NCBI RefSeq assembly: GCF_055900595.2
Contig: NZ_CM148325.1
Direction: 5' to 3' (one strand)
Length of the DNA: 64,000 nt
A program made the translations under genes and the position numbers. The notes beneath the pieces were generated by a model that had not been told where the DNA came from, searched no databases, and was given only the letters and a program-made list of their open reading frames with translations. Of this stretch, positions 17,981 through 51,001 are shown one piece after another. Numbering within the stretch: position 1 is the first letter of the stretch; each line of letters begins with the position of its first letter.

Positions 17981-17985
17981 TAGCC

Positions 17986-18030
17986 ATTACGCCACGGTTA
18001 CTTTATGTACCGTGGCGTAATCTTTTATGA
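17986..18030 (+). terminator. rho-independent terminator after rlmN
   Basis: Perfect 13-bp inverted repeat ATTACGCCACGGT / ACCGTGGCGTAAT with 10-nt loop, followed by CTTTTAT. Confidence 0.7.
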
Positions 18031-18264
18031 ATGAAGTATTAAGTTGCAATTGTCTGGTCAATATTAACGGTGCGTTTTTGCTGACTTTAAGGCAGTATGT
18101 AACGATGCAACAGTAAGTTAGCCTTAGTGAATGTGGGCTTTGTCACGAGCACACAGACGGTCTTATACTGTATGATAACGGTTAACTTAACGGATGTTTC
18201 GCGGTGTGGGTGAGCATGATGGTTCACCGGCATCTCAATTCTCATTTAAACGTACCTGCAGCGA

Positions 18265-19278: not shown

Positions 19279-19304
19279 CAGACGGGTAACGCGGGAGATT
19301 TTTC

Positions 19305-20423: not shown

Positions 20424-20533
20424 TAACGTGATGGGAAGCGCCTCGCTTCCCGTGTATGATTGAACCCGCATGGCTCCCGAAATATTGAGGGGCGCGTTGA
20501 GGGTTCATTTTTATATTCAGAAAGAGAATAAAC

Positions 20534-21808
20534 GTGGCAAAAAACATTCAAGCCATTCGCGGCATGAACGATTACCTGCCTGGCGAAACGGCCATCTGGC
20601 AGCGCATTGAAGGCACACTGAAAAACGTGCTCGGCAGCTACGGTTACAGTGAAATCCGCTTGCCGATTGTAGAGCAGACCCCGCTATTCAAACGTGCGAT
20701 TGGTGAAGTCACCGACGTGGTTGAAAAAGAGATGTACACCTTTGAGGATCGCAATGGCGACAGCCTGACTCTGCGCCCTGAAGGGACGGCGGGCTGTGTA
20801 CGCGCCGGCATCGAGCATGGTCTTCTGTACAATCAGGAACAGCGTCTATGGTATATCGGGCCGATGTTCCGTCACGAGCGTCCGCAGAAAGGGCGTTATC
20901 GTCAGTTCCACCAGTTGGGCTGCGAAGTTTTCGGTCTACAAGGTCCTGATATCGACGCTGAACTGATTATGCTCACCGCCCGCTGGTGGCGTGCGCTGGG
21001 TATCTCTGAACACGTAACTCTTGAGCTGAACTCTATCGGTTCGCTGGAAGCACGCGCCAATTATCGCGATGCGCTGGTTGCATTCCTTGAGCAGCATAAA
21101 GAAAAGCTGGACGAAGACTGCAAACGCCGCATGTACACTAACCCGCTGCGCGTGCTGGATTCCAAAAATCCGGAAGTGCAGGCCCTTCTCAACGACGCCC
21201 CAGCATTAGGTGACTATCTTGACGAGGAATCTCGTGAGCACTTTGCTGGTCTGTGCAAACTGCTGGAGAGCGCGGGTATCGCTTACACCGTAAACCAGCG
21301 TCTGGTGCGTGGTCTGGATTACTATAACCGTACTGTTTTTGAGTGGGTGACTAACAGCCTCGGTTCCCAGGGCACCGTGTGCGCAGGCGGTCGTTATGAC
21401 GGTCTGGTGGAACAACTGGGTGGTCGTGCAACACCGGCAGTCGGTTTCGCGATGGGCCTCGAACGTCTTGTATTGTTAGTTCAGGCCGTTAATCCGGAAT
21501 TTAAAGCCGATCCTGTTGTCGATATATATCTGGTGGCTTCAGGTGCTGACACACAATCTGCGGCTATGGCATTAGCAGAGCGTTTGCGTGATGAATTACC
21601 GGGCGTGAAACTGATGACCAACCACGGCGGCGGCAACTTTAAGAAGCAGTTTGCCCGTGCTGATAAATGGGGCGCCCGCGTTGCTGTGGTGCTGGGTGAG
21701 TCTGAAGTGGCTAACGGCACAGCAGTAGTGAAGGATTTGCGCTCTGGTGAGCAAACGGCAGTTGCGCAGGATAGCGTAGCCGCGCATTTGCGCACGTTAC
21801 TGGGTTAA
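20534..21808 (+). CDS. hisS: histidyl-tRNA synthetase
   Basis: 424-aa ORF with class II aaRS motifs; initiates at GTG 20534 ([10 protein letters not shown]). Confidence 0.93.
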
Positions 21809-21825
21809 GGAAGGAGAAGGACAGC

Positions 21826-22446
21826 GTGGAAATTTACGAGAACGAAAACGACCAGGTTGAAGCGGTTAAACGCTTTTTTGCTGAAAATGGCAAAGCACTG
21901 GCTGTTGGGGTGATTTTGGGCGTTGGCGCATTGATTGGCTGGCGCTACTGGAACAGCCATCAGGTTGATTCTACACGCTCCGCTTCTCTTGCCTATCAAA
22001 ATGCGGTTACCGCAGTGAGCGAAGGCAAACCGGATAGCATCCCGGCGGCGGAAAAATTTGCTGCTGAAAATAAAAATACCTATGGTGCGCTGGCTTCTTT
22101 GGAACTTGCGCAGCAATTTGTTGACAAAAATGAACTAGAGAAAGCTGCCACCCAGTTACAACAGGGATTGGCGGACACGAGCGATGAAAATCTCAAAGCC
22201 GTGATAAATCTGCGTCTTGCTCGCGTTCAGGTTCAGCTCAAGCAGGCTGATGCCGCGCTGAAAACCCTTGATACCATCAAAGGTGAAGGGTGGGCTGCCA
22301 TTGTTGCCGACCTGCGTGGTGAAGCATTGCTGAGCAAAGGTGATAAGCAAGGTGCGCGTAGTGCATGGGAAGCAGGCGTGAAAAGCGATGTTACCCCGGC
22401 ACTGAGCGAAATGATGCAGATGAAAATTAATAATTTGTCCATCTGA
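21826..22446 (+). CDS. yfgM: TPR-like membrane-anchored protein YfgM
   Basis: 206-aa ORF with N-terminal TM helix, GTG start; conserved upstream of bamB. Confidence 0.85.
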   Translation: MEIYENENDQVEAVKRFFAENGKALAVGVILGVGALIGWRYWNSHQVDSTRSASLAYQNAVTAVSEGKPDSIPAAEKFAAENKNTYGALASLELAQQFVDKNELEKAATQLQQGLADTSDENLKAVINLRLARVQVQLKQADAALKTLDTIKGEGWAAIVADLRGEALLSKGDKQGARSAWEAGVKSDVTPALSEMMQMKINNLSI

Positions 22447-22456
22447 GAGGGACCCG

Positions 22457-23635
22457 ATGCAATTGCGTAAATTACTGCTGCCAGGACTGCTTTCCGTTAC
22501 CCTTTTAAGCGGCTGTTCGCTGTTTAACAGCGAAGAAGATGTGGTAAAGATGTCCCCATTGCCAACCGTTGAAAACCAGTTTACGCCGACCACGGCGTGG
22601 AGCACTTCCGTTGGTAGCGGCATTGGCAACTTCTATTCCAATCTTCATCCGGCACTGGCGGACAACATTGTCTATGCAGCAGACCGCGCTGGTTTAGTAA
22701 AAGCGCTGAATGCGGATGATGGCAAAGAAATCTGGTCTGTCAGTCTGGCCGAGAAAGATGGCTGGTTCTCTAAAGAGCCTGCATTACTTTCTGGCGGCGT
22801 GACCGTGTCTGGCGGACATGTCTACATTGGTAGCGAAAAGGCGCAGGTTTACGCGCTGAATACCAGCGATGGTACTGTGGCATGGCAAACTAAAGTCGCG
22901 GGTGAAGCGCTTTCTCGCCCGGTGGTCAGCGACGGTCTGGTGTTAATCCACACCAGTAACGGTCAGTTGCAAGCCCTGAACGAAGCTGACGGCGCTGTCA
23001 AATGGACAGTTAACCTCGATATGCCTTCACTCTCTTTGCGTGGCGAGTCTGCGCCAGCAACGGCTTTTGGTGCGGCCGTCGTGGGTGGCGATAATGGTCG
23101 CGTCAGCGCAGTGCTAATGGAACAGGGCCAGATGATTTGGCAGCAGCGTATTTCCCAGGCGACCGGTTCTACCGAAATTGACCGCCTGAGCGATGTTGAC
23201 ACGACTCCCGTCATTGTTAACGGCGTTGTTTTCGCGCTGGCCTATAATGGTAACCTGACAGCGCTTGATCTGCGCAGCGGTCAGATTATGTGGAAGCGCG
23301 AACTGGGTTCGGTGAATGATTTCATCGTCGACGGCAACCGCATCTATCTGGTCGATCAAAATGACCGGGTGATGGCGTTGACCATTGATGGCGGCGTTAC
23401 GCTGTGGACACAAAGCGATCTGCTGCATCGCCTGTTGACTTCTCCGGTGCTGTATAATGGCAACCTGGTGGTAGGTGACAGTGAAGGTTATCTGCACTGG
23501 ATCAACGTCGAAGATGGTCGTTTCGTTGCCCAGCAAAAAGTTGATAGTTCCGGTTTCCAGACTGAACCGGTTGCCGCTGACGGCAAACTGCTGATCCAGG
23601 CAAAAGACGGGACTGTGTACTCTATTACACGTTAA
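22457..23635 (+). CDS. bamB: outer-membrane assembly lipoprotein BamB
   Basis: 392-aa ORF with lipoprotein signal LLSGC and PQQ-like beta-propeller repeats. Confidence 0.92.
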   Translation: MQLRKLLLPGLLSVTLLSGCSLFNSEEDVVKMSPLPTVENQFTPTTAWSTSVGSGIGNFYSNLHPALADNIVYAADRAGLVKALNADDGKEIWSVSLAEKDGWFSKEPALLSGGVTVSGGHVYIGSEKAQVYALNTSDGTVAWQTKVAGEALSRPVVSDGLVLIHTSNGQLQALNEADGAVKWTVNLDMPSLSLRGESAPATAFGAAVVGGDNGRVSAVLMEQGQMIWQQRISQATGSTEIDRLSDVDTTPVIVNGVVFALAYNGNLTALDLRSGQIMWKRELGSVNDFIVDGNRIYLVDQNDRVMALTIDGGVTLWTQSDLLHRLLTSPVLYNGNLVVGDSEGYLHWINVEDGRFVAQQKVDSSGFQTEPVAADGKLLIQAKDGTVYSITR

Positions 23636-23752
23636 TCGTCTCTGTCGTTCACTTTGAAAACGGCTCCTGGACAGGGGCCGTTTTCCTGTTTTTAACAACG
23701 ACACGAATATAGCGTGCGTTGTCTGATGATTTATAAAAATGAGGCTTTAAAC

Positions 23753-25225
23753 ATGGTACCTGTGGTCGCGCTTGTCGGGCGCCCTAACGTAGGAAAATCC
23801 ACGTTATTTAACCGTCTAACTCGCACCCGAGATGCGCTGGTTGCGGATTTCCCGGGTCTGACTCGTGACCGTAAGTACGGTCGTGCGGAAATTGAAGGCC
23901 GCGAGTTTATCTGTATTGATACCGGCGGGATTGACGGAACAGAAGACGGTGTAGAAACCCGCATGGCGGAACAGTCGCTGCTGGCGATTGAAGAAGCGGA
24001 CGTCGTACTGTTTATGGTGGATGCGCGCGCGGGCCTGATGCCTGCGGATGAAGCGATTGCCAAACATCTGCGCTCCCGCGAAAAACCCACCTTTCTGGTG
24101 GCAAACAAAACCGATGGTCTGGATCCGGATCAGGCCGTTGTTGATTTCTATTCGCTCGGTTTAGGTGAAATCTATCCTATCGCCGCGTCTCACGGTCGTG
24201 GCGTATTAAGTCTGCTGGAGCACGTGCTGTTGCCGTGGATGGAAGATATCGCACCACAAGAAGAAGTGGATGAAGACGCTGAGTACTGGGCGCAATTTGA
24301 AGCGGAAGAGAACGGCGAAGAAGAAGAGGAAGACGACTTTGACCCGCAAAGTCTGCCAATCAAACTGGCGATAGTGGGTCGTCCTAACGTCGGTAAGTCT
24401 ACACTCACTAACCGTATCCTTGGCGAAGAACGCGTCGTAGTTTACGACATGCCGGGCACTACGCGTGACAGTATCTACATTCCAATGGAACGCGATGGGC
24501 GTGAGTATGTACTCATTGACACTGCGGGCGTACGTAAACGCGGCAAAATCACCGATGCGGTAGAGAAATTCTCCGTAATCAAAACATTGCAGGCGATTGA
24601 AGATGCCAACGTGGTGATGTTGGTGATTGATGCTCGCGAAGGTATTTCCGATCAGGATCTCTCCCTGCTGGGCTTTATTCTCAATAGTGGGCGCTCACTT
24701 GTCATTGTAGTGAACAAGTGGGACGGCCTGAGCCAGGAAGTGAAAGAGCAAGTAAAAGAGACGCTGGACTTCCGTCTGGGCTTTATCGACTTCGCCCGTG
24801 TGCATTTTATCTCTGCATTATACGGCAGCGGCGTTGGTAACCTGTTTGAGTCAGTACGTGAAGCGTATGACAGCTCCACCCGTCGTGTGGGGACATCTAT
24901 GCTGACGCGTATCATGACCATGGCGGTTGAAGATCACCAGCCGCCGCTGGTTCGCGGGCGTCGTGTGAAGCTGAAATATGCCCACGCCGGTGGTTACAAT
25001 CCGCCGATTGTGGTGATTCACGGCAACCAAGTGAAAGACCTGCCTGATTCGTACAAACGCTACTTGATGAATTACTTCCGCAAGTCTCTGGACGTGATGG
25101 GTACGCCGATTCGTATTCAGTTCAAAGAAGGGGAAAACCCATATGCGAACAAGCGTAACACCCTGACGCCGACCCAGATGCGCAAGCGTAAGCGTTTGAT
25201 GAAGCATATTAAGAAAAGTAAGTAA
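23753..25225 (+). CDS. der: ribosome-associated GTPase Der (EngA)
   Basis: ORF 23714..25225; start likely [17 protein letters not shown] at 23753; two tandem GTPase domains (GRPNVGKST twice). Confidence 0.93.
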
Positions 25226-25287
25226 TCACTTATCTGGTTTCCCTTTCCAAACGGAGAGGGAAACTGAACAACAGGCGAGGAGTATTT

Positions 25288-25503
25288 ATGGAACTCAACT
25301 GCCCAACCTGCCATAACCCTCTCGAACGCAACGGTGAAACTGCCCACTGTGCAACTTGTGCCAAAGATTTCACCATTCAGGCGCTTTGTCCTGACTGCCA
25401 TCAGCCATTACAGGTGTTAAAAGCTTGTGGTGCAGTAGATTATTTCTGCCAGCATGGGCACGGTTTAATATCCAAAAAGCGCGTTGAATTTATTGTTGCT
25501 TAA
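25288..25503 (+). CDS. yfgJ: zinc-ribbon protein YfgJ
   Basis: 71-aa ORF with CPTC..CATC..CPDC..C Cys pairs. Confidence 0.85.
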   Translation: MELNCPTCHNPLERNGETAHCATCAKDFTIQALCPDCHQPLQVLKACGAVDYFCQHGHGLISKKRVEFIVA

Positions 25504-25712
25504 TATTATTTAAATATATGGTGTAATCATTTGTATTCATAATATAAATGATTGCATCCTATTTTATTTGTTGAAACGCAAATGTAAGTGAGCGAAATCA
25601 CTGTGTTATAAATTTAAGATTATATTTAGTTTTCCTGGCGTGCCTTTCTGAATAATCTGGAATAGAATATTAGAGCTAATTTTAAGCATTATTAATGTCA
25701 CAGGGGATGTGC

Positions 25713-27887
25713 ATGCTGCGATGGAAACGCTGTATTATGCTAACATTTATCTCTGGAGCTGCTTTTGCGGCTCCAGAGATAAATGTTGAGCATAAAGAAT
25801 CGTTACCTGATTTAGGTAGTCAGGCCGCACAACAGGAAGAGCAAACTAACAAGGGTAAATCGCTAAAAGAGCGTGGTGCCGATTACGTCATTAACTCTGC
25901 CACGCAAGGGTTTGAAAACCTGACACCCGAGGCGCTGGAGTCCCAGGCCAGAAGCTATCTGCAAAGTCAAATTACCTCTACGACACAATCTTATATTGAG
26001 GATACACTCTCCCCCTACGGTAAGGTCCGAACGAATCTTTCTCTTGGTCAGGGCGGCGATCTGGATGGCAGTTCCATCGATTATTTTGTTCCCTGGTATG
26101 ATAATCAAACTACTGTTTATTTCAGCCAATTTTCTGCACAACGAAAAGAAGATCGTACGATCGGGAATATTGGGCTTGGTGTAAGACATAATTTTGATAG
26201 ATGGTTATTGGGTGGAAATATATTTTATGATTATGACTTTACCCGTGGGCATCGCCGTTTAGGTTTAGGCGCCGAAGCGTGGACTGATTATTTAAAATTC
26301 TCTGGCAACTATTATCACCCGCTTTCTGACTGGAAAGACTCCGAAGATTTCGATTTTTATGAGGAGCGCCCGGCGCGCGGCTGGGATATTCGCGCCGAAG
26401 CCTGGCTACCTGCTTACCCGCAGCTTGGCGGTAAAATCGTTTTCGAACAGTATTACGGTGATGAAGTCGCGCTTTTTGGCACCGATAATCTGGAGAATGA
26501 TCCCTTCGCCGTCACGCTGGGTGTGAAATACCAGCCCCTACCACTCATTGCCGTAGGAACGGATTTCAAAGCCGGCACTGGCGATAATACCGATCTTTCT
26601 GTTAACGCAACGCTGAACTACCAGTTTGGTGTCCCGCTCAAAGACCAGCTTGATCCTGACAAAGTGAGCGCGGCTCACTCGCTCATGGGCAGCCGTCACG
26701 ACTTTGTTGAACGTAACAACTTTATTGTTCTGGAATACAAAGAGAAAGATCCCCTCGATGTCACTTTGTGGCTGAAAGCCGATGCGACGAATGAACATCC
26801 CGAGTGCGTGATTAAAGATACGCCAGAAGCAGCCATCGGGCTGGAAAAATGTAAGTGGACCATTAACGCGCTCATTAATCATCACTACAAAATCGTTGCT
26901 GCCTCCTGGCAGGCGAAAAACAATGCTGCACGTACGCTGGTGATGCCGGTTATCAAAGAAAATACGCTTACCGAAGGGAACAACAATCACTGGAATCTGG
27001 TGCTGCCTGCCTGGCAGTACAGCTCTGATAAAGCCGACCAGGAAAAACTCAATACCTGGCGGGTACGCCTGTCGCTGGAAGATGAAAAGGGCAATCGGCA
27101 GAACTCCGGCGTGGTGGAAATTACCGTTCAGCAGGACCGTAAAATTGAGCTCATTGTTAACAACATCGCCAATGTACCGGATGAGAACAATCACAGCCAC
27201 GAAGCCAGCGCGCAAGCGGATGGTGTAGATGGTGTCGTCATGGATCTCGACGTTACCGATAGTTTTGGCGACAACACTGACCGTAACGGTAATGTCTTGC
27301 CGCAGGATAATCTCAGCCCGCAGCTGTTTGACGCCAATGATAAAAAAGTGACGCTGACAAATAAACCCTGCACCACCGAGGTGCCGTGCGTTTTTATCGC
27401 CAAACAAGATAAAGAAAAGGGGACCGTTACGCTCTCCAGTACGTTGCCCGGCACCTTCCGCTGGAAAGCGAAAGCCGCCCCTTATGATGACAGTAACTAT
27501 GTTGACGTAACGTTCCTGGGTTCTGACATCGGCGGGCTGAATGCTTTTATCTACCGCGTTGGTGCAGCTAAGCCCGTCAATCTTATCGGCAACAAAGAAC
27601 CGTTGCCTCTCAATAGCCGCTATCGCTTTGTGCTGTGGCGCGACGCTAACAAAGACGGCGTGTTCCAGCTTTCTGAGAAGCTCACTGACGATGAGATGAA
27701 ACAGTATGACTATCAGTGGGAATTCACGGGGCATAGCGTAAATGGCAATACCGGTGCGCAAACCAATACCACGAACGTCGATATAGAGATCCCGGCAACC
27801 AACAAGGAAGCGGCAGCAAAGTTTAGTGCCCAGGTAACCGATGGCGTGCAGGGATACGGTTTGCAGGTCAATTACAGCAAGAAATAG
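25713..27887 (+). CDS. sinH: intimin/invasin-family inverse autotransporter (SinH-like)
   Basis: ORF 25695..27887; ATG 25713 has SD AGGGGA and gives signal peptide MLRWKRCIMLTFISGAAFA; N-terminal beta-barrel-type region with Ig-like passenger domains; island position between yfgJ and xseA. Confidence 0.75.
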   Translation: MLRWKRCIMLTFISGAAFAAPEINVEHKESLPDLGSQAAQQEEQTNKGKSLKERGADYVINSATQGFENLTPEALESQARSYLQSQITSTTQSYIEDTLSPYGKVRTNLSLGQGGDLDGSSIDYFVPWYDNQTTVYFSQFSAQRKEDRTIGNIGLGVRHNFDRWLLGGNIFYDYDFTRGHRRLGLGAEAWTDYLKFSGNYYHPLSDWKDSEDFDFYEERPARGWDIRAEAWLPAYPQLGGKIVFEQYYGDEVALFGTDNLENDPFAVTLGVKYQPLPLIAVGTDFKAGTGDNTDLSVNATLNYQFGVPLKDQLDPDKVSAAHSLMGSRHDFVERNNFIVLEYKEKDPLDVTLWLKADATNEHPECVIKDTPEAAIGLEKCKWTINALINHHYKIVAASWQAKNNAARTLVMPVIKENTLTEGNNNHWNLVLPAWQYSSDKADQEKLNTWRVRLSLEDEKGNRQNSGVVEITVQQDRKIELIVNNIANVPDENNHSHEASAQADGVDGVVMDLDVTDSFGDNTDRNGNVLPQDNLSPQLFDANDKKVTLTNKPCTTEVPCVFIAKQDKEKGTVTLSSTLPGTFRWKAKAAPYDDSNYVDVTFLGSDIGGLNAFIYRVGAAKPVNLIGNKEPLPLNSRYRFVLWRDANKDGVFQLSEKLTDDEMKQYDYQWEFTGHSVNGNTGAQTNTTNVDIEIPATNKEAAAKFSAQVTDGVQGYGLQVNYSKK

Positions 27888-27942
27888 GGTCGGCGCCATG
27901 GCTGATCGGGCCACCGCTGAATATTAATCAAGGAGAGTGTTT

Positions 27943-28935
27943 ATGAAACCTGATATGAAACGTGGCCTGACAAAAGTCGCGCTCGCGTTGATGCTGGCTG
28001 GATACTGTGCCGTACCAGCCGCTATGGCGGAAGATGCCGCCTGGGTCGCCAGTGGAGCGACCGCTGAATTCGAAGGGACTATACCCTGGCTCTATCGCGA
28101 AGGGGGGAATGCCACGATTAACTCGGAAGATGCGGATCACATTAAAGTGACGTCTGATGGTAAAGGGACCCGCCCTGCAGGTAGCGAGACGGATAAACGC
28201 CTTTACTCAGGGGATACCATCACGCTGGGATGGGATATCGGCGATACCGAAGGGGATGTTGATGATGGTCCCGCAGGCATTGATGCGAAAACGACGGCCA
28301 CTATCAAATGGTACAGCTACAGCAATAATGCGGGTGGCGATAAAACGGAGCTGACCGCAGCGGCAGGCAAGACGAGTTATAAACTCACTGATGACGATCG
28401 TGGGCGTTATATCGGTGTTGAAATCCAGCCCATCACCCAGACCGGTAATCCCTTCGAGGGAACGTCGCTGACTCTGCTGGATATTTCAACGGCCAGCGGT
28501 GGCGGCAGCGATACGGACAATGTCGATCCCGGCCCGGTTGTGAACCAGAATCTGAAAGTTGCCATCTTCGAGAAAGGCACCACTACCAACCTTATCGGTG
28601 GTAACACGGCCATTGCGCTTAATAAAACGTATGTGGCCAAACTGTACTCGGATGAAAACCAGAACGATAAATACGACGCAGGTACGGATATGGACGTTAC
28701 CGCTAACTATGACTTTGCATGGGTCTTTAACGGTAACAGTAAACAACTTGCTGCGGCGGGCGGTATTGCTAATGCCAGCTTCGATAACAATGACATTGTT
28801 ATCCCGCAAACTAACGAAGAAGCAAGAACCAGCCTTAACGGTAGTGATCGTAATGGTAAGAGTGGTCTTGCGATCCCGGCAAACGGCGACGGCGTTCAGG
28901 GCTATACGCTGTCTATCATTTACAAACACCACTAA
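27943..28935 (+). CDS. secreted SinI-like protein sharing a C-terminal module with SinH
   Basis: ORF 27937..28935; ATG 27943 preceded by AGGAG; signal peptide; C-terminus DGVQGYTLSIIYKHH parallels the SinH C-terminus DGVQGYGLQVNYSKK. Confidence 0.7.
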   Translation: MKPDMKRGLTKVALALMLAGYCAVPAAMAEDAAWVASGATAEFEGTIPWLYREGGNATINSEDADHIKVTSDGKGTRPAGSETDKRLYSGDTITLGWDIGDTEGDVDDGPAGIDAKTTATIKWYSYSNNAGGDKTELTAAAGKTSYKLTDDDRGRYIGVEIQPITQTGNPFEGTSLTLLDISTASGGGSDTDNVDPGPVVNQNLKVAIFEKGTTTNLIGGNTAIALNKTYVAKLYSDENQNDKYDAGTDMDVTANYDFAWVFNGNSKQLAAAGGIANASFDNNDIVIPQTNEEARTSLNGSDRNGKSGLAIPANGDGVQGYTLSIIYKHH

Positions 28936-29043
28936 TGCGCACAACAGCATTCCCTTACGGGAATGCTGTTTTCGCCTGTTTTGCTTAGCGACGCGTTAAG
29001 CAAAACAGGTTGATGTTTTGTTTATCATGCTGGAGTTTTCTAC

Positions 29044-32000
29044 ATGTCGGTATGTCTGAAACCAGGGAAAATCATTATGCTTCTGGGCATGTTGGCAGCT
29101 TTTATGCTGTCTGACTTTGCACGGGCAGGGGCGGAATGGCAGACATATCCTGATTCTACAGGCGAGTTTAACGGAACCGTTCCTTTTGCCGACAGCGCCA
29201 GCGTACCCGTCTATCAGGGCAGTGTTCAGCTTAATCCTGCTGAATCTCATGATGTCGGGTTTTCTGCTAAACCGAATGAATTTAGCGTTGACGATGACGC
29301 TGCTAACCTGATTGTCGCTAATCCTCAGGACAATGAAGGCGACCAGTTTTCCACACCACCTGCGCTGCGCTGGGAAAATCAAACACCCCCTACCGTCAGC
29401 CTGGTGTGGGCCGATGCCGCCACGCCCGATGTGCCCCTTAACCCACAACCTATTGCTAACCGTAGCTTTTGCGCTCAGGGGCTGGCCGGACGCTCGCTGG
29501 TGGCCTGGCCGCAGATTGATGCGCAGCAAACCCTCCCACTGCTCTACCTGTTGACCTCGACCGGCTATCCCTATGCGGGGACGGTGGCGCTGGTGGACCA
29601 GAAAGTGACCCTGAACATCGCGCCCGCGCAGGGCGATTTAATCTCGGTGAGCGCCAGCGGTTATAACGAAACGATCGCGGCGGCAAAAACCACCGTTGGC
29701 GACACCATCACGCTCACCGTCACCACTAAAGATTGTCAGGGCAACGTCGCGGGTAATATTCCGTTTATTATCAAACGTAAAGATGCTGAAAATCGCCAGG
29801 GGGCAGTGAATAATAGTGCGCCAGTGGTACTGGATAGCACCGAGTTAACGACGACGGCTACCGAATACCATGGCACCTCTGATGCCAACGGCACGGCCAC
29901 CATCACGGTGAGCCAACCGAACGGCCCTGGCGTCAAAACGCCACTGGTGGTCAGCATTTCCGGCATTGCGCAAACCAGCGAAACCGCGGTGATTTTTACG
30001 GTGCTCACCAGCCCGGACGCGGCGCAGGCTACGATGTGGGGCCATATGGCGGAAACGGTAGAAGCGCACGGTTACACCTTCAGTCGACCAAAGCTGGCGG
30101 CAGAAGTCAGCAATGAAAGCGCCACGGTCGTCGATCACAACGAAACCTGGTCCACCTTCACCTGGAGCGGCGCAGATAACCACTGCACCGTGCTGCCCGG
30201 CATGCGCCACTTCGGCGCGCTGGCGACCGTTATCCCCACATCGGTGCAGACAGTCCTTGGCTGGCCGATGCAGGGGGATTATTACTGGTCATCGCTGGCG
30301 GGCACCACCGGGCAGCACCATGCGGCGGATGTCTCTAACCGTGGTGAAACGCAAAAGCCGGATAGCACCCCGTTTCTTGTAAGCTGCGTGGATAAACCCG
30401 CGCCTGATGTCGAGCCGAAAATCGTCCTTACGCCCGAAAACTATGATGATACGGCACAGGCGATGAAATCGCAGGTGGGCGAAGACGCCACGATGCGTCT
30501 GACGATCACCGACAATAAAAATAACGATCAACCACTGGCGTATTACTACTTCTCGCTGCATCTGGATGACGGCGTTAACCGCAAAAATCAAACCGATTCC
30601 GCCTGGGAAGCCCATCCGGTGCAGATTACTGGTGGTTCGAATTTGCAACAGGTTGATGCTCACACCTATGAAGGCATGACCGATGTCAACGGTCAGGCTT
30701 CGCTAACCCTGAGTCAGCCCGACGGCGCAGGCGTGAAAACCCATATCACGGCGAAAATGCGCAGCAATTTTACGGCTACAGATGCCAAAGACGTGATTTT
30801 TACTGTGATCACCAGCCCGGACAGCGACAAGGCGCGGATGTGGGGCCATATGCGCGGCATTGTTGTATCTGGCAGTCTGTTCAAACGCCCAGTGCTGGCG
30901 GATGAAACTGAGCATGAACTGGGATCGGTGCGGGAAAATAACGAAGACTGGGCGCTGTTCGATCAAGACACCAGTATGCAGGCTGAATGCGGCGTCGGCC
31001 ATACGCCAAGTCAGAGTGGGCTGGAAAGCCTTTTTTCAGCCCATCCCGGTAACGCGATTGGCACTGAGTATGGCTGGCCCACCGCACAACAGAACTACCT
31101 AAGCGCGGTGGAGCAAGCCACGCATTCATCGGTGAATTTGGCGAACGGAAACGTCGACAGCTACCCCGGCTTTAAGCGAAATTACCTCTCCTGTTCGGGC
31201 AATGAGATGGTCGCGAAGGTTGAAGTGAGCACCGATCACGATGTCACCCCTGGCACCAAAGCGCAGGCCAAAGTGGGAGACACCGTCGTGATGACCGTGC
31301 GTACGGTTAACGCGCTCAATAATACCCCCGTTCCCTTTACTGCCTTCACCATCACTAAAGGCATGGGGTATAACCGAGCGGGGCTGGTGAGCGGGTTTGA
31401 TGACCCGAGCAGCGGCGCAATCTCGATGAATGGCACGCAATACGGCACATCTCAGCCGTCGATGGTCTACACAGGTACGACAGATGCACAAGGCGTGGCA
31501 ACGGTCGAAATAGAGCAACCCCAGGGGGTGGGGTTAAGAACCGTGCTGAGCATTACGCCGGTCAATTCCCATCTACCAAATGCCATTAATTACAATGTTA
31601 TTTTTACCACCCCAACCAGCCCGGATGTTAGTGGGGCGCAGATGTGGGGCCATATGGATGAAACGATTACCGTTGATTCATTAACCTTTACCCGGCCTAA
31701 GCTGGCAGCAGAAATCACCAGTCCGGATGGCACATTAACGGAAAAAAACGAAGTCTGGGCGCGCGTTAGCCAGGCCAGTACGGCCATTACCAGTAAAGGC
31801 GGTTGCGGAACCAATATGCTGCCGCGCCGCTCCCAGCTCAGTGCGCTCTATGACGCTAATAACGGTAATGCGGTGCAAGCCACACACGGCTGGCCGACGC
31901 AGCGTCAGCCCTACTGGAGCAGTTCCCCCGCGGATTTAACGCCGCACAATTACACCATTGCCCTGGATAACGGCGCACAGGCCATCGGCGGCGATACGCC

Positions 32001-35000
32001 GGTTTACGTCAGTTGCCTGACGACGGCGAACAAACCTGCCAGCAGCATTACGCTGGATGTGGTTGATAACGCACAGTGGGCTGCCGGAAATAACGCGGCG
32101 AAGCTGAAAAAAGGCGAAACGCTACAGGTTAAGGTAACGGTAAAAGATGCGCAGGGTAATCCGCTCACGGATATGCCATTTAAACTGAGTCGCGGAGACG
32201 GTTATACCCGCACGGGCGAAAAACATATTGCCGGTAGTGGCGATGCGCTGGTGGCACCGGTGGTGATTAACAGTGGGCTGGCGGATGAAACGACGTTGAA
32301 CGACACCGCGGGATTTTATACTGCCATGACCGGCAGCGACGGCAGCAAAATCCTCAATATTACCCGCCCGGATACTCACGGTACCAAAACGGCGCTGACG
32401 GCGACGTTGTATTCCGATCCAACAAAAAAAGACAGCCTGGATACAATCTTTACTGTGGTCACCAGCCCGGATAGTAGCAAAGCGAAAATGTGGGGCCATA
32501 TGCCGGAAACCTTAACGGCGGCAGATGGTACCGTTTTTAAACGCCCATTGCTGATAAAGGAACTGTCGAGTCAGACCGGGCGAACAGCAATATTCGAAGA
32601 CAATGAAAACTGGGCGCTGTTTACTCAAACCCAGGCGAACTCAACCAGTAACGGCTGCGGCACTAGCTATGTTCCCACTCAGGCAGGGTTGTTGTCGTTG
32701 TTTGATAATCACGCTGGCAATACCATCAAAACCGTCCAGGGCTGGCCGGTAGTAACGCGTTATTTATCCAGCACGCCCGACAACACTGGCATGGAACAGC
32801 GTAACTACAAAGCGGTGGATCTCGGCAATGGCACCAGTGCCATGGTGTCAACGTCGACACTGGATCTACTGACCTGCCAAACCACGCCAGTCACCACGGT
32901 GAGCCAGATTCTGCTGGAAGCGGCAGATCCTGCGGCTCTGATTTATGTTGACGATACACTGAGTGTGGTTAAAGCCAAAAAAGGCGAAGAGTCGGTAGTG
33001 CGCGTCACCACGAAAGATGCGCAAGGTAACCCGGTTGGCAATGCGGCGTTTATTCTGAAACGTGCCACCAGCATAAACCGGAGGTATACATCAGCGACAG
33101 CGAGTGTAGGTGCGCTGACTGTAACCGATGCCTGGGGAAATACGCGGAGTAATTTTCAGGCAACAACTGAAATGATCTATGGCGTGACGGGGGCTGACGG
33201 GTCGACAACCTTTACGCTGAAACAGGATAACAGTACCGGGTTAAGAACCGATCTCACGGCATCACTGGATGGCGTCAGCAGCGTTCAGGCGACCCTCCCG
33301 ATGGTCTTTACCGTGGTAACCAGTCCAGATTCTCCTAAAGCGAATTTTTGGGGACACATGCCTGAAACGGTAACGGCCGCTGATGGCATGACGTATAAGC
33401 GACCATTACTGTTTAAAGAACTTACCAATAACTATGCACGCTATAGCACTTTTGAGAATGGTGAAGATTGGGCAAGATTCAGTGTGGTTCAGTCAAATAA
33501 CACCGATATGGATGGATGCGGTGCAGAGTATATGCCGACACTGGATGGCCTGCAGTCCTTGTACAGTGCCAATAGTGGTAATGCGATGAGTACAGTGCAG
33601 GGATGGCCGGTAGCTAATAGTTATCTCACCAATACACCGAGTGATACGCAACCCAGTAACCGTTATTACAATGTGGTGCAACTGAATTCCGGCGCGGTTT
33701 CTCAAATCGTGACCACCGTGCTGGCATTACAAACTTGTCGCACAACGCCTGCGGTTATTGCCAGCCAGGTGTCTCTGGAGCCTGCGGACGCCACGCAATT
33801 CGTTAAGGTTGACGATACTCTGAGCGCCATTAAGGTGAAAAAAGGCGATGAGGTTGTTATTCGCGTCACGACCAAAGATGCGCAAGGAAACCCGGTGGGT
33901 AATACGCCGTTTACACTGAAGCGTAGCAGTTCTTTCAATCGCCAGAATGCATTAGTGACGATGCAGACGGTTTCGGTGACACCCGCAGCGGCCAGTACAG
34001 TTGATACCAATGCATCGGCCACCGTGTATGGCGTGACCGGGCCAGACGGAACCACCACGATGACACTCCGACAGGATGCGTCTACTGGACTCAAAACCGA
34101 CTTTTATGCTCTGTTGAACGATACCGGCGTGTCGTCGAACACCTTGCCAGTGATCTTCACCGTCGTCACCAGCCCGGATACACCGCTGGCGGCCAACTGG
34201 GGGCATATGGCGGAAACCTTTACCAGCAGCAAGGGCGTCACCTTCAAACGGCCTTTCCTCAAAGCTGAACTTTCTGGTGGTACGGCGGTAACGACCAATA
34301 ATGAAGTCTGGTCGCGCCTGACAGCAACGGAGAAAACGGATGCCAGCAAGGCGGGTTGTGATGAGAGTTATCAACCGCTGATGACTGACATGCAGGGGTT
34401 GTATGCGGATTACCCTAACAACCAGTTGGGCACGGTGCTCGGCTTGCCGACTTCCGCCGGGTATATGTGGGCCTACGACATGATGACGGTTTCTGGCAGC
34501 AGCTGGAGCAACCAGGCATATTCGCTCGTTAATGGTCAGACAGTTCAGGCATCGTCCAGTTATACGGCGGTAGTGATGTGCCTGGTGGAACCGCATACCG
34601 TTCCGGCGATGATAGAGATCACTTCAACAGCACAGGATGCGGCAAAAACGGTCAGCAATGGTGGTCGACCGAGCGCCGTAGCGAAGAAAGGTGAGACGAT
34701 TCCGCTGACGGTGACCGTACGTGATAGCACCGGGAATCCGGTACCCTACGCCGACTTTACCCTCACGCGTGGAACGACGCTGGATCGCTCGAAAGCAACC
34801 GTTAACTCGAGTGCGGACGATCTTACCGTGAAGTCATTGATACCCGCGAACAGCGACGCTGGGCTGACGGCAAATGGGGCAAAAGTGCTCAGAACAACGG
34901 GCAGTGATGGCACTGCCACCTTTGAAGTGAGCCAGAATGCCACGACAGGTCTGGCGACACCGATAACCGTCACGCTGGCGCGCGATACAACCAAAACCGC

Positions 35001-37131
35001 CACGCTGGATGTTATCTACACGGTGATAACCAGCCCGGACTCACCGAGCGCGAAATTCTGGGGACACATGCCGGACACCTTTACCAGTTCGGCAGGCGTC
35101 ACCTTCAGACGACCGCTCCTGAAAGCCGAAGCGACTTCAGGGTCATCGATTAGCACTAACGGTAATGGTGAAGTGTGGTCGTATATGAGCAACGTTCAAA
35201 ATTTAACATCGACAGATTGTCCGCTGGAGAATCAACCGCGCAGTAATGAATTGTTGGATTTGTATAATGATCATCCCAACGGCGCGATAATGACTGACCT
35301 GGGGCTGCCGATATATGCAGGCAAGTGGTGGGCTTATGATATGGTCATGCCGGATTTATATACGTGGCAGTATCAGACTGTCAGCCTGAGCGCAGGAGAT
35401 ATCGCGAAGAGCTCGGCAAACAACGCGCTGATGCTTTGCCTGGCGAAGCCGCATCCGGCAGGCGTCAGCGTAATGTTGACGTCATCCGCAATGGATAACG
35501 CCAGAACCCTCAGTAATGGCGGGCGACCCAGCGCGTCAGTGAAAAAAGGTAACCCACTGCCAATTGTGGTGACGGTCAAAGATCGTGATGGCAACCCGCT
35601 GGCGGGAGAGGCCGTGACGCTCAGGCGTGGTTCAGCGATGAGTCGTTCAGGAGCAGGAGTGGGCACGCCGGCAAATGCAATGACGTTGACAGAATTGACA
35701 CCTGTGTCGGCGGAGTTTTCTCTGGCCGCACACGATACGCAATGGCAAGGTTTCACCGGTAGTGATGGTACGGCCACTTTCAATGTTGAACAGCCTGAGA
35801 CCATCGGCCTGGCTATCTCGTTCACCGCTATACTGGCGCGAGATGTCGCAACTACCAGCGTCATTGATGCGATCTTTACCGTCGTCACCAGCCCGGATTC
35901 CGCAATGGCGACCTACTGGGGCCATATGCCGGATACGGTAACGGCGGAAAACGGCGTGGTCTTTGAACGGCCTAAATTGTTGAAAGAGCTGCCGTCGAGC
36001 GCCGGAGTCAGTCAGGTGACGGATAACAATGAAGTGTGGCCGTTGTTTAAGGCAACGCAAAGGGAAGATAGCAGCCTCAGTCCTTGTGAAGCGGCACGTC
36101 GGCCATTGAGCGATGATTTATTATCGCTCTACGCGCGCTATCCGGGGAACACGCTGACGACTCAAATCGGCTGGTCTACGAAGTATGCATGGTGGGCACT
36201 GGATAACAAGCAGGGGAATGCCCTGGTTGTCAGTCTGAATAATGGTTTTGAGTCGTCGACGGCGAGTACGGGGTATCAGGGATGTCTGGTCAATCCCCGC
36301 GCGACCGTCTCCAGCGTCACGCTGACATCGACGGCGATAGATGCCACTACGCAGGCGGCGAAGGTAAAAAAAGGTGAAGCCGCGCCCGTCGTTGTTACCG
36401 TAAAAGACAGCGCCGGGAAGCCGGTACCTAATGTCGCTTTCACCTTAAAACGTGGTGATGCCGTGCCGCGTAACAGCGGGGCGACGTTGTATGGTGATGT
36501 TGCGGCGATGGATGATATGACGGTACAACCTGCCAGCGGGACGGTGGTAACGCTGGCTGACAGTGGGAATACGATCGACGGTGTGACAGGGGCGGACGGT
36601 ACGGCAAGTTTTGCCGTTCGTCAGGATAATACGCCAGGATATAAAACGCCGTTGACGGTGACGCTGACGGATAACGCCACAATAACGGCGACGCTGGATA
36701 CGATTTTCACCGTGCCGACCAGCCCGAATGTCGCCACGGCGTATTTCTGGGGGCATATGGCGGATACCGCCACCGTAAGTGGCAAGACGTTACATCGCCC
36801 GCTATTGAAATCAGAGTTGCCGTCAGGGGCTACAGCGGCAGTAGCGCCAACGGTGAATAATGAAATCTGGGCGCTGGCACATGTGATCGATGCTCAAAAA
36901 TGGGATATTGCAAAGCAGTGCGGTGACTTTAGTAGAGCACCGAGCTATACCGATTTACAGTCATTGCATAGCGGTTTTAGCGCGCTGGGATGGCCATCAT
37001 CGATAAGCTTCCCCTATTTCTCTACCGATCGGGCCGGTTCGTTCTATTGTGGTATGGATGAAGGGGCGGGGACACAAAACTGCGGTATTCAGGCATCCAG
37101 TACCGCAGGGTTTGCGACTTGTTTCCAGTAG
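29044..37131 (+). CDS. ratA: giant repetitive secreted/surface protein (RatA-like)
   Basis: 2695-aa ORF with N-terminal signal peptide; nine tandem ~270-aa units each carrying FTV(V/L)TSPD..(M/F)WGHM motifs. Confidence 0.8.
29650..37100 (+). repeat. nine in-frame tandem coding repeats (~0.81-0.86 kb period) within the ratA-like gene
   Basis: WGHM signature recurs near nt 30033, 30838, 31642, 32490, 33347, 34197, 35058, 35917 and 36757. Confidence 0.8.
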
Positions 37132-37178
37132 TCTTATCGGGTCTGTAAGCGGGGGAAAGTCTGGTACGCAATACGTCT

Positions 37179-38576
<1,398 letters not shown>

Positions 38577-38658
38577 TTATTCAGTCGATAGTAACCCGCC
38601 CTCCGGGGATAGCAAGCATTTTTTGCAAAAAGGGGTAGATGCAATCGGTTACGCTCTG

Positions 38659-38664
38659 TATAAT
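38659..38664 (+). promoter_or_regulatory. candidate -10 hexamer (TATAAT) of the guaBA promoter
   Basis: Perfect TATAAT 44 bp upstream of the guaB ATG in the xseA-guaB divergent region; -35 element not clearly resolved. Confidence 0.4.
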
Positions 38665-38707
38665 GCCGCGGCAATATTTATTAACCACTCTGGTCGAGAT
38701 ATTGCCC

Positions 38708-40174
38708 ATGCTACGTATCGCTAAAGAAGCTCTGACGTTTGACGACGTTCTCCTCGTTCCTGCACATTCTACCGTTCTGCCGAATACCGCTGACCTCAGC
38801 ACCCAGCTGACAAAAACTATTCGTCTGAATATCCCTATGCTCTCCGCAGCAATGGATACCGTAACGGAAGCGCGCCTGGCTATCGCCCTGGCTCAGGAAG
38901 GCGGTATCGGCTTTATCCACAAAAACATGTCCATTGAACGCCAGGCTGAAGAAGTTCGCCGCGTGAAAAAACACGAATCTGGCGTGGTAACCGATCCGCA
39001 GACTGTTCTGCCAACCACGACGCTGCGCGAAGTGAAAGAGCTGACCGAGCGTAACGGTTTTGCAGGCTATCCGGTTGTGACCGAAGAAAACGAACTGGTC
39101 GGCATTATCACCGGTCGTGACGTGCGTTTTGTTACCGATCTGAACCAGCCGGTTAGCGTTTACATGACGCCGAAAGAGCGTCTGGTAACCGTGCGTGAAG
39201 GCGAAGCCCGTGAAGTGGTGCTGGCAAAAATGCACGAAAAACGCGTTGAAAAAGCGCTGGTGGTTGATGATGAATTCCACCTGATCGGCATGATCACTGT
39301 GAAGGACTTCCAGAAAGCGGAACGTAAACCGAACGCCTGTAAAGACGAACAAGGCCGTCTGCGTGTAGGTGCAGCGGTTGGCGCAGGTGCGGGTAACGAA
39401 GAGCGTGTTGATGCGCTGGTTGCCGCAGGCGTTGACGTTCTGCTGATCGACTCCTCTCACGGTCACTCTGAAGGCGTTCTGCAGCGTATCCGTGAAACTC
39501 GCGCTAAATATCCTGACCTGCAAATCATCGGCGGCAACGTGGCAACAGCTGCAGGTGCCCGCGCGCTGGCAGAAGCCGGTTGCAGTGCCGTTAAAGTGGG
39601 TATCGGCCCAGGTTCTATTTGTACTACCCGCATTGTTACTGGCGTCGGTGTACCGCAGATCACTGCCGTTGCTGACGCAGTAGAAGCCCTGGAAGGCACC
39701 GGGATTCCGGTTATCGCTGACGGTGGTATTCGTTTCTCTGGCGATATCGCGAAAGCTATCGCTGCTGGTGCAAGCGCGGTGATGGTAGGCTCCATGCTGG
39801 CAGGTACGGAAGAATCCCCGGGTGAAATCGAACTCTACCAGGGCCGTTCTTACAAGTCTTACCGTGGGATGGGCTCTCTGGGCGCGATGTCCAAAGGTTC
39901 TTCTGACCGTTACTTCCAGAGCGACAACGCTGCCGACAAACTGGTGCCGGAAGGTATCGAAGGTCGCGTAGCCTATAAAGGTCGCCTGAAAGAGATCATT
40001 CACCAGCAGATGGGCGGCCTGCGCTCCTGTATGGGCCTGACCGGCTGTGGTACTATCGACGAACTGCGTACTAAAGCGGAGTTTGTACGTATCAGCGGTG
40101 CGGGCATTCAGGAAAGCCACGTTCACGACGTGACCATTACTAAAGAGTCCCCGAACTACCGTCTGGGCTCCTGA
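38708..40174 (+). CDS. guaB: IMP dehydrogenase
   Basis: ORF 38639..40174; start [18 protein letters not shown] at 38708; catalytic [11 protein letters not shown] loop. Confidence 0.95.
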
Positions 40175-42030: not shown

Positions 42031-43245
42031 ATGGAGAGTGACCCGATGCTGACCGATACCAAACTGAAAAACCTCAAAGCGCGGGAAAAACTTTATAAAG
42101 TTGCAGACCGTGATGGGCTGTATGTAACCGTATCTCCCAAGGGATTGGTGACGTTTCGCTATGACTATCGAATCAATGGTCGTCGTGAAACGTTAACTAT
42201 TGGTCGCTATGGTGACGGTATTTCTCTGGCGCAGGCGCGCGAAAAATTAGTGGAAGCCAAAAAACGCGTAAATGCAGGAATATCGCCCGCTGGAGAGAAG
42301 CGTGACGGTAAAACAAAGCGAAAAGAAGAAAAGACACTCCACGATTTTACCGTCAGCTACATGAAACACACCCGGCTGGCGGACAGCACAAGGGCGATGA
42401 AGCAAAGCATTATCGACAGAGACATCACGCCAGTATGGGGGCGCAAGCTGCTGTCAGAGATAACCCCCTCTCTCCTACGTGAGTATTGCGACAAGATAAA
42501 AGCGCGTGGTGCGCCAGCGACGGCGATTCAGGTTCGCAATATCGTTAGTGCGGTATTTAAGTTCGCCGCGCTTCACGGCGACTATTACCCCAATCCTGCC
42601 GAAGAGGTTTTACCGGCTTCAATTGCGACATTCGAAGCGCGCGACAGGGCGCTCAAGCCAGAGGAGATAGGCTGGTTTTTCAATCAGCTTGAACAAACGG
42701 GTACATTACCCACCATCAAGCTGGCCATTAAATTGGTTTTATTAACGATGGTACGTAAAAGTGAACTGCTGAACGCTCCGTGGGGTGAGGTTAATTTTAA
42801 TGCCTGCCTTTGGACGATTGACGCCAGCCGGATGAAGGGATCACGGGATCATAATGTTTATCTGTCCCGGCAGGCACAGGACATTCTGATTGCCCTGAAA
42901 ATGTGCGCAGGAAGCAGTGATTGGGTTTTGCCTTCATGCAATCAGTCGTCGCATAAGACCATGTCGGCGGCGACCTTAAACCGGGTCATTAATCTTACGG
43001 TTAAGCAGGCGCAGGAACGGGGGATCAGGCTGGCGTCGTTTTCCGTTCACGATATGCGCCGAACGGCATCGACGTTATTGCATGAGGCGGGGTTTAATTC
43101 CGACTGGATAGAAAAATGCCTCGCGCACGAGGAAAGAAGCGTCAGAGCCGTTTATAACAAAGCGGAATACGCAGAGCAGCGCCGTGATATGTTGCAGCAG
43201 TGGGCGGATATGGTTGATGGGTGGATCAAGCAATACCGCCCGTAA
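42031..43245 (+). CDS. int: tyrosine-type site-specific integrase (P4-like family)
   Basis: 404-aa ORF; N-terminal LTDTKLKNLKAREKLYKVADRDGLYVTV arm-binding type sequence and C-terminal catalytic region (HDMRRTASTLL..CLAHEE..VYN); alternative start ATG 42046. Confidence 0.9.
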   Translation: MESDPMLTDTKLKNLKAREKLYKVADRDGLYVTVSPKGLVTFRYDYRINGRRETLTIGRYGDGISLAQAREKLVEAKKRVNAGISPAGEKRDGKTKRKEEKTLHDFTVSYMKHTRLADSTRAMKQSIIDRDITPVWGRKLLSEITPSLLREYCDKIKARGAPATAIQVRNIVSAVFKFAALHGDYYPNPAEEVLPASIATFEARDRALKPEEIGWFFNQLEQTGTLPTIKLAIKLVLLTMVRKSELLNAPWGEVNFNACLWTIDASRMKGSRDHNVYLSRQAQDILIALKMCAGSSDWVLPSCNQSSHKTMSAATLNRVINLTVKQAQERGIRLASFSVHDMRRTASTLLHEAGFNSDWIEKCLAHEERSVRAVYNKAEYAEQRRDMLQQWADMVDGWIKQYRP

Positions 43246-43248
43246 GTA

Positions 43249-43503
43249 CTATGCGGGGATCTTGGTACCAGAGCGCTTTGGGACTTTGGCCAGATTTTTC
43301 TGTACCGCGTTATCAATATGGTGATGGTTATTTTCCTGCCGTGCTTTGAGCCAGCGTTCCACTTCCTCTTTGTCCCACGCGACGGCGCGCTTCGTTAGCG
43401 CAAAACGTTTGGGAAACAGGCCTTTTTGCTCCAACGCATAAATCGTACTTTCAGAGAGTGGCACCATCTGTAAAAGCACGTTTTTTCTAATGGCAATTTT
43501 CAT
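43249..43503 (-). CDS. AlpA/Vis-family phage transcriptional regulator (excisionase-like)
   Basis: 84-aa ORF resembling AlpA (..LSESTIYALEQKGLFPKRFALTKRAVAWDKEEVERWL..); adjacent to and divergent from int. Confidence 0.75.
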   Translation of the reverse strand: MKIAIRKNVLLQMVPLSESTIYALEQKGLFPKRFALTKRAVAWDKEEVERWLKARQENNHHHIDNAVQKNLAKVPKRSGTKIPA

Positions 43504-50316: not shown

Positions 50317-50318
50317 GG

Positions 50319-50957: not shown

Positions 50958-51001
50958 CGGATGATAATTATTTTGAGCGAAAAGGGATTTTCATTAATAC
51001 G

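Follow-up and report, generated by a model that had tools for sequence, protein, structure and literature searches.

Organization of the locus

In this study, the DNA between yfgJ and xseA was analyzed in a 64,000-nucleotide stretch of contig NZ_CM148325.1 (RefSeq assembly GCF_055900595.2), here called the window, to which all positions refer unless another locus is named. Three intact open reading frames (ORFs) on the plus strand filled the interval: sinH, sinI, and a ratA-like gene (Table 1). The distance from the yfgJ stop codon to the xseA stop codon was 11,675 bp. Farther out, der, bamB, yfgM, hisS, ispG, and rodZ lay to the left of the interval, and guaB and guaA lay to its right. Within 25713–37131, no other ORF matched a protein family. 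RefSeq names the same three genes in Escherichia coli genomes that are 85–97% identical to the window. As a whole, the locus was best explained, with a probability of about 0.9, as the known E. coli sinH–sinI–ratA adhesin cluster, also called iatB or the 'ila' locus. This gene cluster is already described in E. coli and Salmonella.

Gene identity was assigned by NCBIfam models with curated cut-offs at the equivalog or subfamily level. The ORFs as first placed covered 25695–27887, 27937–28935, and 29044–37131. SinH scored 1473.7 bits against NF033423 (cut-off 999), with residues 7–730 on positions 1–730 of the 730-position model. SinI scored 377.2 bits against NF040711 (cut-off 165) over its full length. 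The RatA-like protein scored 5420.1 bits against NF011844 (PRK15316; cut-off 3870), covering model positions 1–2683 of 2683. For sinH, the start at 25713 was favored over 25695 by the model alignment, the length of the RefSeq orthologue (2175 nt), and an AGGGGA ribosome-binding site. For sinI, the start at 27943 was favored over 27937 by an AGGAG Shine-Dalgarno sequence upstream of the ATG and by a 993-nt orthologue. The gap between sinH and sinI was 55 bp.

An initial annotation, made from the letters of the window, had described an accessory island of about 11.6 kb at 25504–37140 that encoded SinH-like, SinI-like, and RatA-like proteins. The identity of the three genes held, as all were full-length and above the NCBIfam cut-offs. 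The placement between yfgJ and xseA and the size were also correct. The start of the proposed span stood, and its end was corrected, since 37140 lies 9 nt beyond the ratA stop codon.

Table 1. Features of the yfgJ–xseA interval and its immediate flanks (aa, amino acids).
Feature	Position	Strand	Evidence
yfgJ, zinc-ribbon protein, left flank	25288–25503	+	71-aa ORF; so annotated in K-12 and related genomes
yfgJ–sinH spacer, A+T-rich leader/promoter region	25504–25712	+	27.8% G+C
Terminator-like hairpin just 3' of yfgJ	25520–25558	+	18-pair A+T-rich stem followed by CTATTTTATT; consensus match only
sinH, intimin-like inverse autotransporter (type Ve), 724 aa	25713–27887	+	NF033423
SinH beta-barrel translocation domain, aa 63–336	25899–26720	+	Pfam IAT_beta PF11924, E = 3.5e-105
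C-terminal domain of SinH, homologous to that of SinI, aa 622–721	27576–27875	+	BLASTP
sinI, autotransporter-associated protein, 330 aa, signal peptide, no barrel	27943–28935	+	NF040711
SinI N-terminal motif W-x5-T-AEFEGTIPW, immediately behind the signal peptide	28042–28089	+	Conserved in SinI of all genera
Hairpin 1, after sinI, G+C-rich stem, terminator-like	28943–28970, then UUUU	+	Covariation
Hairpin 2, before ratA, 17-pair stem, invariant core UUUGCUUA/UAAGCAAA	28974–29010	+	Hairpin scan
ratA-like gene, 2695-aa secreted repeat protein	29044–37131	+	NF011844/PRK15316
RatA-like N-terminal motif, begins W-x6, shared with SinI	29137–29187	+	Motif comparison, hidden Markov model
Nine tandem BIg21 + InvE adhesion-domain modules, aa 219–2693	29698–37122	+	Pfam PF05688/PF05689
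xseA, exonuclease VII large subunit, right flank, convergent with ratA	37179–38546	−	TIGR00237, 532.6 bits

Features of the three proteins

By inspection, the N-terminus of SinH was signal-peptide-like (MLRWKRCIMLTFISGAAFA/APE). The barrel domain matched the solved structures of invasin (4e1t, E = 2.5e-72) and intimin (4e1s, E = 1e-64), and about 390 residues without a Pfam match followed it. The C-terminal domains of SinH and SinI were 31% identical over 115 columns (BLASTP, E = 1e-9), and the NCBIfam models of the two families matched each other's protein. The order of signal peptide, IAT beta-barrel, and C-terminal passenger was that of type Ve proteins. Judged by its sequence, SinH is a type Ve autotransporter with a predicted Sec signal peptide, an outer-membrane barrel, and a probably immunoglobulin (Ig)-like passenger of about 390 residues. 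For the orthologue IatB of E. coli SMS-3-5, surface exposure was reported by immunofluorescence, and expression of IatB/SinH led to biofilm formation (PMC6714894).

SinI had no significant domain in a Pfam scan, hence no barrel domain. A sequence search of the Protein Data Bank (PDB) returned no relative among solved structures at E ≤ 1. The AlphaFold model, built with a 15-sequence alignment, was all-beta with two Ig-like sandwiches and a mean predicted local distance difference test score (pLDDT) of 71.9. A Foldseek comparison of the model with the PDB gave nothing at E ≤ 0.001; the best matches (E = 8e-3) were generic Ig/FnIII two-domain proteins. The moderate-confidence model and the weak fold matches hint at an Ig-like fold. 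In its family score, the lack of a barrel, its position directly downstream of sinH, and its SinH-like C-terminal domain, the protein agreed in all points with the SinI family.

A cysteine in the sequence A-G-Y-C inside the SinI signal peptide was invariant in 15 of 15 aligned orthologues (window ~27997–28008, …LAGYC…). It is not a canonical lipobox, because tyrosine stands at −1. The central domain of SinI (residues ~87–170, window ~28195–28446) carried the pattern GD-x-ITL-x-W-x-IGDTEGD … RYIGV-x-I-x-P. Giant proteins of 1000–7500 residues in a library of 1.84 billion proteins carried this domain up to 27 times. The profile search of that library with the SinI alignment gave 644 matches at E ≤ 0.001, with about ten full-length SinI-like clusters among the matches listed, and showed no link to other partner families.

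The RatA-like protein began with a signal-peptide-like sequence ending in …FARA/GAEW, followed by an N-terminal region of about 190 residues. PF05688 and PF05689 then alternated nine times along the protein in three overlapping scans, and no barrel was present. Tandem Repeats Finder detected no DNA tandem repeats in 25000–37500. The repeats exist at the protein level only, having diverged too far to be detected as tandem repeats in the DNA. Against the Salmonella RatA model NF011843, the protein scored 1978.1 (cut-off 3700), and against the RatB model NF011842 it scored 2338.7 (cut-off 4079); the best-aligned stretch on both was the N-terminal ~1450 residues only. Since both scores were below the cut-offs, the giant protein is taken as the E. 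coli-type 'RatA-like' protein and as an orthologue of neither in NCBI's sense.

The A+T-rich leader

Related loci were collected by searching the SinI alignment against one genome per species (100,044 species), which gave 24 loci. The initial annotation had noted a very A+T-rich leader of about 200 bp before sinH. This was confirmed; the leader contained the lowest-G+C 209-bp stretch of the window. In 17 of 18 loci examined, from several genera, the yfgJ–sinH spacer measured 196–236 bp with 21–31% G+C, and the exception was E. coli E69, which carried extra DNA. In the E69 locus (L024, 7143–8792), the interval was about 990 bp compared with about 209 bp, and the SinH match covered only 506 residues, which may reflect an insertion or a sinH gene truncated at its 5' end.

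The leader was present in every genus sampled. It therefore appears to be an old, presumably regulatory part of the locus, and its reading as a mark of recent, horizontal arrival was not upheld. In E. coli, the promoter of sinH/iatB stays silent under laboratory culture, and overexpression of LeuO, an H-NS antagonist, raises the iatB transcript about 15-fold (PMC6714894). Because the promoter is silent and LeuO-inducible, and the leader is A+T-rich, repression by H-NS is indirectly plausible. Searching the literature turned up no data that address H-NS at sinH directly. Transcription would begin in the conserved leader, possibly under H-NS repression. Against this step stands a sigma-70 consensus scan of the leader, in which the forward strand gave no site and shuffled sequence gave more sites than the leader did. 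Co-transcription of the two genes sinH and sinI has been described (PMC12525524, which cites Shea 2022).

Hairpins between sinI and ratA

The spacer between sinI and ratA was 108 bp long and contained two hairpins that were conserved across genera with compensatory changes. In hairpin 1, 100% of cells in 15 sequences were paired, and compensatory changes occurred in 7 of 10 pairs. In hairpin 2, 95.8% of cells were paired and six outer pairs covaried. Each locus had one copy of this hairpin, located in every case between sinI and ratA. For both hairpins in the 15 sequences, 97.4% of cells were paired and 13 of 26 pairs had changed on both sides. None of 500 shuffles reached the observed values, and slid controls had 37–50% paired cells and 1–3 two-sided pairs. 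Rfam gave no match for either hairpin or for the leader, at the gathering threshold over the whole window and in E-value mode over 25450–29100. In two loci (L009 and L021), extra DNA lay between the two hairpins, and it was repetitive extragenic palindrome (REP)-like in L009.

Hairpin 1 has the appearance of a moderately strong intrinsic terminator. Between hairpin 2 and the ribosome-binding site of ratA, there was no room for a ratA promoter; ratA would therefore be expressed by read-through, below sinH–sinI. From the covariation, the terminator-like hairpin would limit read-through into ratA. One point against this is that termination at hairpin 1 may be weak, because only four U residues follow the stem. 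The covarying intercistronic hairpins suggest a regulated uncoupling of ratA from sinH–sinI.

Distribution in E. coli

In K-12 MG1655, yfgJ and xseA were convergent, their stop codons overlapped by 4 nt (TTAA), and nothing lay in between. Homology between K-12 and the window broke off at 25504 and restarted at 37239. The locus is therefore accessory, as the initial annotation had proposed from an expected absence in K-12. With at least 80% coverage required, sinH and sinI were found in 1687 of 5426 complete E. coli genomes (31%). Published frequencies of iatB/sinH are 35% of genomes overall and 37 of 39 B2 strains (PMC6714894), and those of sinH are 98% in B2, 100% in F, 100% in G, and 67% in D (PMC9937491). 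The present count agrees with the published prevalence. The locus is prevalent in E. coli strains of the extraintestinal pathogenic type (ExPEC), and SinH is already a vaccine candidate; SinH domains used as a vaccine protect mice (PMC9937491).

The sinH–sinI alleles fell into classes, with 18 genomes at ≥95% identity to the window, 743 at 90–95%, and the others near 78%. The allele of the window was thus rare (18 of 5426). The closest match over the whole locus was 97.0%, in strain 2013C-4282. The window is E. coli DNA; over positions 17000–25500 its identity was 100% to strain Z0117EC0005 and about 96.5% to K-12. Z0117EC0005 carried a clean 8064-bp deletion, corresponding to window 26953–35016, that fused the 5' part of sinH to the 3' part of ratA. 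The corresponding stretch of its locus (L002) was 28714–32066, and the breakpoints shared only 2–6 bp of similarity. Both remnants, of sinH and of ratA, are annotated as pseudogenes, and the window copy represents the intact form.

The deletion in this nearest complete genome, the insertion sequence (IS) insertions that some E. coli loci carry, and the silence of the promoter in laboratory culture would fit a decaying remnant without present function in the strain of the window. However, all three ORFs of the window were intact and matched their family models end to end, the 8-kb ratA-like gene included, and the signal peptides, motifs, and hairpins were conserved. A functionless remnant is thus very improbable here.

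Origin of the locus

The gene order of the related loci was determined by tblastn. The order der–yfgJ–sinH–sinI–ratA-like–xseA(−)–guaB recurred across genera. It was found in E. coli, E. whittamii, and two other Escherichia species; in three Pseudocitrobacter, five of six Citrobacter, and two Superficieibacter; and in one further Enterobacteriaceae genome. An E. albertii contig carried yfgJ–sinH–sinI–ratA-like and ended short of xseA. The G+C content of the island was 52.8%, compared with 52.5% for the window, and it was near that of the local flank in most loci. No tRNA gene was found in the 64-kb window. Within the island, no integrase, transposase, or other mobility ORF was found, and its borders carried no direct or inverted repeat of ≥8 bp.

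The same site and order in several genera, the host-like G+C content, the lack of mobility marks, and the shared leader indicate that the locus is old. From these sequence comparisons, it was concluded that the locus appears to predate the split of these genera and to be a position-fixed but dispensable component of the backbone shared by the Escherichia, Citrobacter, and Salmonella chromosomes. Its absence from K-12-type E. coli probably reflects loss. Compared across taxa, the C-termini of XseA proved too variable to mark the K-12 junction as a deletion scar, and no outgroup with an empty site polarized loss against gain.

The initial annotation had regarded the 11.6 kb as an inserted island. 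This view was not supported in that form, since the G+C content was at background, tRNA genes, integrase, and border repeats were lacking, and the site was the same in at least four genera. Among the features of a classical island, variable presence among strains was observed; an atypical gene composition, tRNA or mobility genes, and direct repeats were not. A recently acquired classical pathogenicity island, silenced by H-NS as foreign A+T-rich DNA, would explain the lack of the locus in K-12 and in about 69% of the complete genomes of E. coli, as well as the A+T-rich leader, and reviews call the locus horizontally acquired (PMC12525524). Yet the coding G+C content did not differ from that of the window, the position and gene order were the same in several genera, and the leader was conserved in all of them. 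A recent island of this kind is improbable, and the evidence on the movement of the locus, given below, also bears on it.

Allelic exchange by recombination

Identity to K-12 dropped toward the locus. On the left, it fell from ~97% to 92% and to 73% in yfgJ, the N-terminal half of which was strongly diverged. On the right, it was 82–90% across xseA and returned to ~97% in guaB. The xseA of the window was 87.5% identical to that of K-12 and 94.1% identical to that of Pseudocitrobacter vendiensis. P. vendiensis was also 92.9% identical to the window in sinH and 97.8% in sinI. In bamB and der, its identity was 78% and 84% to the window, compared with 94.5% and 93% to P. faecalis. The 78–84% identity in bamB and der is ordinary inter-genus divergence.

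The switch lay inside the barrel region of sinH. Identity to P. vendiensis was ~50–72% before 26115, 88% at 26115–26364, and ~97% from 26365, and the ~97% stretch ran from window ~26365 to at least 38360. The mosaic segment (L004 ~8700–21357, window 26365–38900) spanned the sinH barrel region, sinI, ratA, and xseA, with its right junction farther out. The sinH allele shared with P. vendiensis was 78–82% identical to other Escherichia and other Pseudocitrobacter alleles alike. By these identities, the mosaic is best read as inter-genus recombination, with the distances of the shared allele favoring neither direction of transfer. Escherichia sp. MOD1-EC7003 (L021) was 96.5% identical to E. coli in bamB; its sinH and xseA were 88% and 85% identical, respectively, to those of Superficieibacter sp. 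(L013). This is an apparent second inter-genus exchange.

The locus and the hitch-hiking xseA thus seem to behave like a hypervariable cassette that is swapped by homologous recombination in conserved flanks. Near-identity between genera shows that the DNA does move, as a recent pathogenicity island would require. The movement was replacement within conserved flanks, with one junction inside sinH, and not insertion. Of the proposed horizontal acquisition, horizontal exchange was retained, and its mode was revised from insertion to allelic replacement by homologous recombination. Hypervariable alleles that cross genus boundaries bear on the stability of SinH as a vaccine antigen.

A shared N-terminal motif and a possible partner system

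SinI and the RatA-like protein, unrelated in other respects, shared a motif that follows their signal peptides directly and has the consensus LK-G-WQ-x5-T-G-x-I-x-G-T-x-P. The motif region of SinI in the window was …AWVASGATAEFEGTIPW, and a matching segment followed the signal peptide of the window's RatA-like protein. In Citrobacter-type loci, the motif read GNLKSGQWQIVSDSTGTIQGTVPW in SinI and ALKSGTWQEVNTSTDAINGTVPL in the RatA-like protein. A 30-column hidden Markov model (HMM) was built from the SinI motifs alone and run on the six-frame ORF segments of all loci, 7001 in number. After SinI itself, almost only RatA-like N-termini were found, at the same position and with E values from 5.6e-6 upward; unrelated ORFs first appeared at E ≈ 0.5. 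The motif was also present in the N-terminus of a Salmonella RatA/B-like protein (P0222). The motif segment of SinI had a pLDDT of <50 in the AlphaFold model, which fits a flexible linear signal. The shared motif is consistent with a common recognition step, the recognizing partner being left unspecified. No mention of the N-terminal motif or of the sinI–ratA hairpins was found in the cited literature.

In the proposed mechanism, SinH would be displayed on the surface and mediate adhesion and biofilm formation, as published. SinI and the RatA-like protein would be SinH partners, exported or anchored through SinH as proposed for ZirT with ZirS and ZirU, and recognized via the shared motif. Export of downstream barrel-less proteins by SinH, in the manner of ZirT, has been proposed by two groups (PMC4943183, PMC6714894). 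From the motif and the analogy to ZirT, a role of SinI and the RatA-like protein as partners recognized in this way is put forward tentatively, with odds somewhat below even. The fuller form, in which SinH is an export or anchoring device that acts via the motif and the hairpin pair sets the dosage of the partners, is unlikely as it stands.

Several points weigh against the partner system. Without the downstream protein, recombinant IatB/SinH still gets to the surface and gives rise to biofilm (PMC6714894). The lumen of the barrel is presumed to become plugged after export of the passenger (PMC4943183). The match of the motif HMM to the RatA-like protein of the window itself was modest (E = 0.0055), and export of SinI and RatA-like through SinH, being drawn from sequence and analogy, is a proposal only.

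These points can also be accommodated by three independent proteins sharing a locus. SinH would be self-sufficient, SinI and the RatA-like protein would be periplasmic or exported otherwise, and the shared motif would serve a chaperone, a processing site, or the like. The surface exposure and biofilm obtained with SinH/IatB alone and the protection by SinH-only vaccines (PMC9937491) agree with this, as do the conserved terminator-like hairpin that parts ratA from sinH–sinI and the lack of a specific Foldseek match of SinI to a known secretion substrate. On the other hand, the three genes occurred together in the same order in all genera sampled, SinI has a domain in common with SinH, and SinI and the RatA-like protein carry the common motif at the same position. 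A 2695-residue adhesin-domain protein without a barrel or a known secretion signal also needs a route to the surface. Full independence of the three proteins is less likely than not. If the partner system is real in its fuller form, the locus would amount to a secretion system of the 'type Ve two-partner' kind, with three components and a secretion signal that can be defined. The shared motif gives a concrete, mutable handle on an old question: the route to the surface taken by barrel-less partners of inverse autotransporters like ZirT and SinH.

Other elements in the window

A prophage-like integrated element began directly after the guaA stop codon and occupied 41823–64000, running beyond the end of the window. 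It encoded an integrase (42031–43245), Dam-like methyltransferases (43487–44314 and 58205–58963), a primase-like protein of 885 residues (44902–47559), a VgrG-related/baseplate-like protein (51578–52678), and a tail tape-measure protein (53114–55963). The element was absent from K-12, 2013C-4282, and Z0117EC0005, the last of which has an IS200 tnpA at the site. The classically inserted DNA of the window is this element and not the sinH locus. Apart from the sinH leader, only one patch in the window was very A+T-rich, at 49730–51520 within this element. Beside this patch lay a YejK-like nucleoid-associated protein (49168–50316), with a weak, below-cut-off match to the anti-phage model 'DS1', and ORFs without a family match also adjoined it. 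Two Rfam small RNAs scored above the gathering threshold at their usual places: ryfA near sseB/sseA (7270–7574, minus strand, 312.5 bits) and sroE between ispG and hisS (20423–20514, plus strand, 110.4 bits).

Comparison with known systems

SinH has a homologous barrel and the inverted domain order in common with intimin and invasin. In contrast to these proteins, it had no LysM domain, Big_1 repeats, or C-type lectin tip in the Pfam scan. It scored 247 on the intimin NCBIfam model (cut-off 1400), and the window locus lacked Tir and the context of the locus of enterocyte effacement (LEE).

The Salmonella ZirT–ZirS–ZirU system has an inverse autotransporter and, after it, secreted proteins without a barrel, one of them passenger-like; the same arrangement was found in the window. 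Unlike in ZirTSU, one partner in the window is a 2695-residue repeat protein, and the dependence of the partners on SinH is proposed by analogy only. SinI had no sequence or fold match to ZirS or ZirU in the PDB sequence search and the Foldseek comparison.

The CS54 island of Salmonella enterica has the order xseA–shdA–ratB–ratA–sinI–sinH–yfgJ (PMC3591323). The likeness to CS54 claimed in the initial annotation was found in the shared chromosomal site and in the sinH–sinI–ratA core, SinH and SinI both passing their family models. The window differed in lacking shdA and a second rat gene (ratB), and its SinI was ~41–45% identical to the Salmonella copies. Its giant protein fits PRK15316 'RatA-like' rather than Salmonella RatA or RatB.

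The ExPEC loci of ST131 EC958, SMS-3-5, and Nissle 1917 had the same genes, gene order, yfgJ–xseA site, and RefSeq product names as the window. The ST131/F-type allele was ~91.6% identical to the window in sinH–sinI and ~85% over the whole island, and the Nissle/B2-type allele was ~78% identical.

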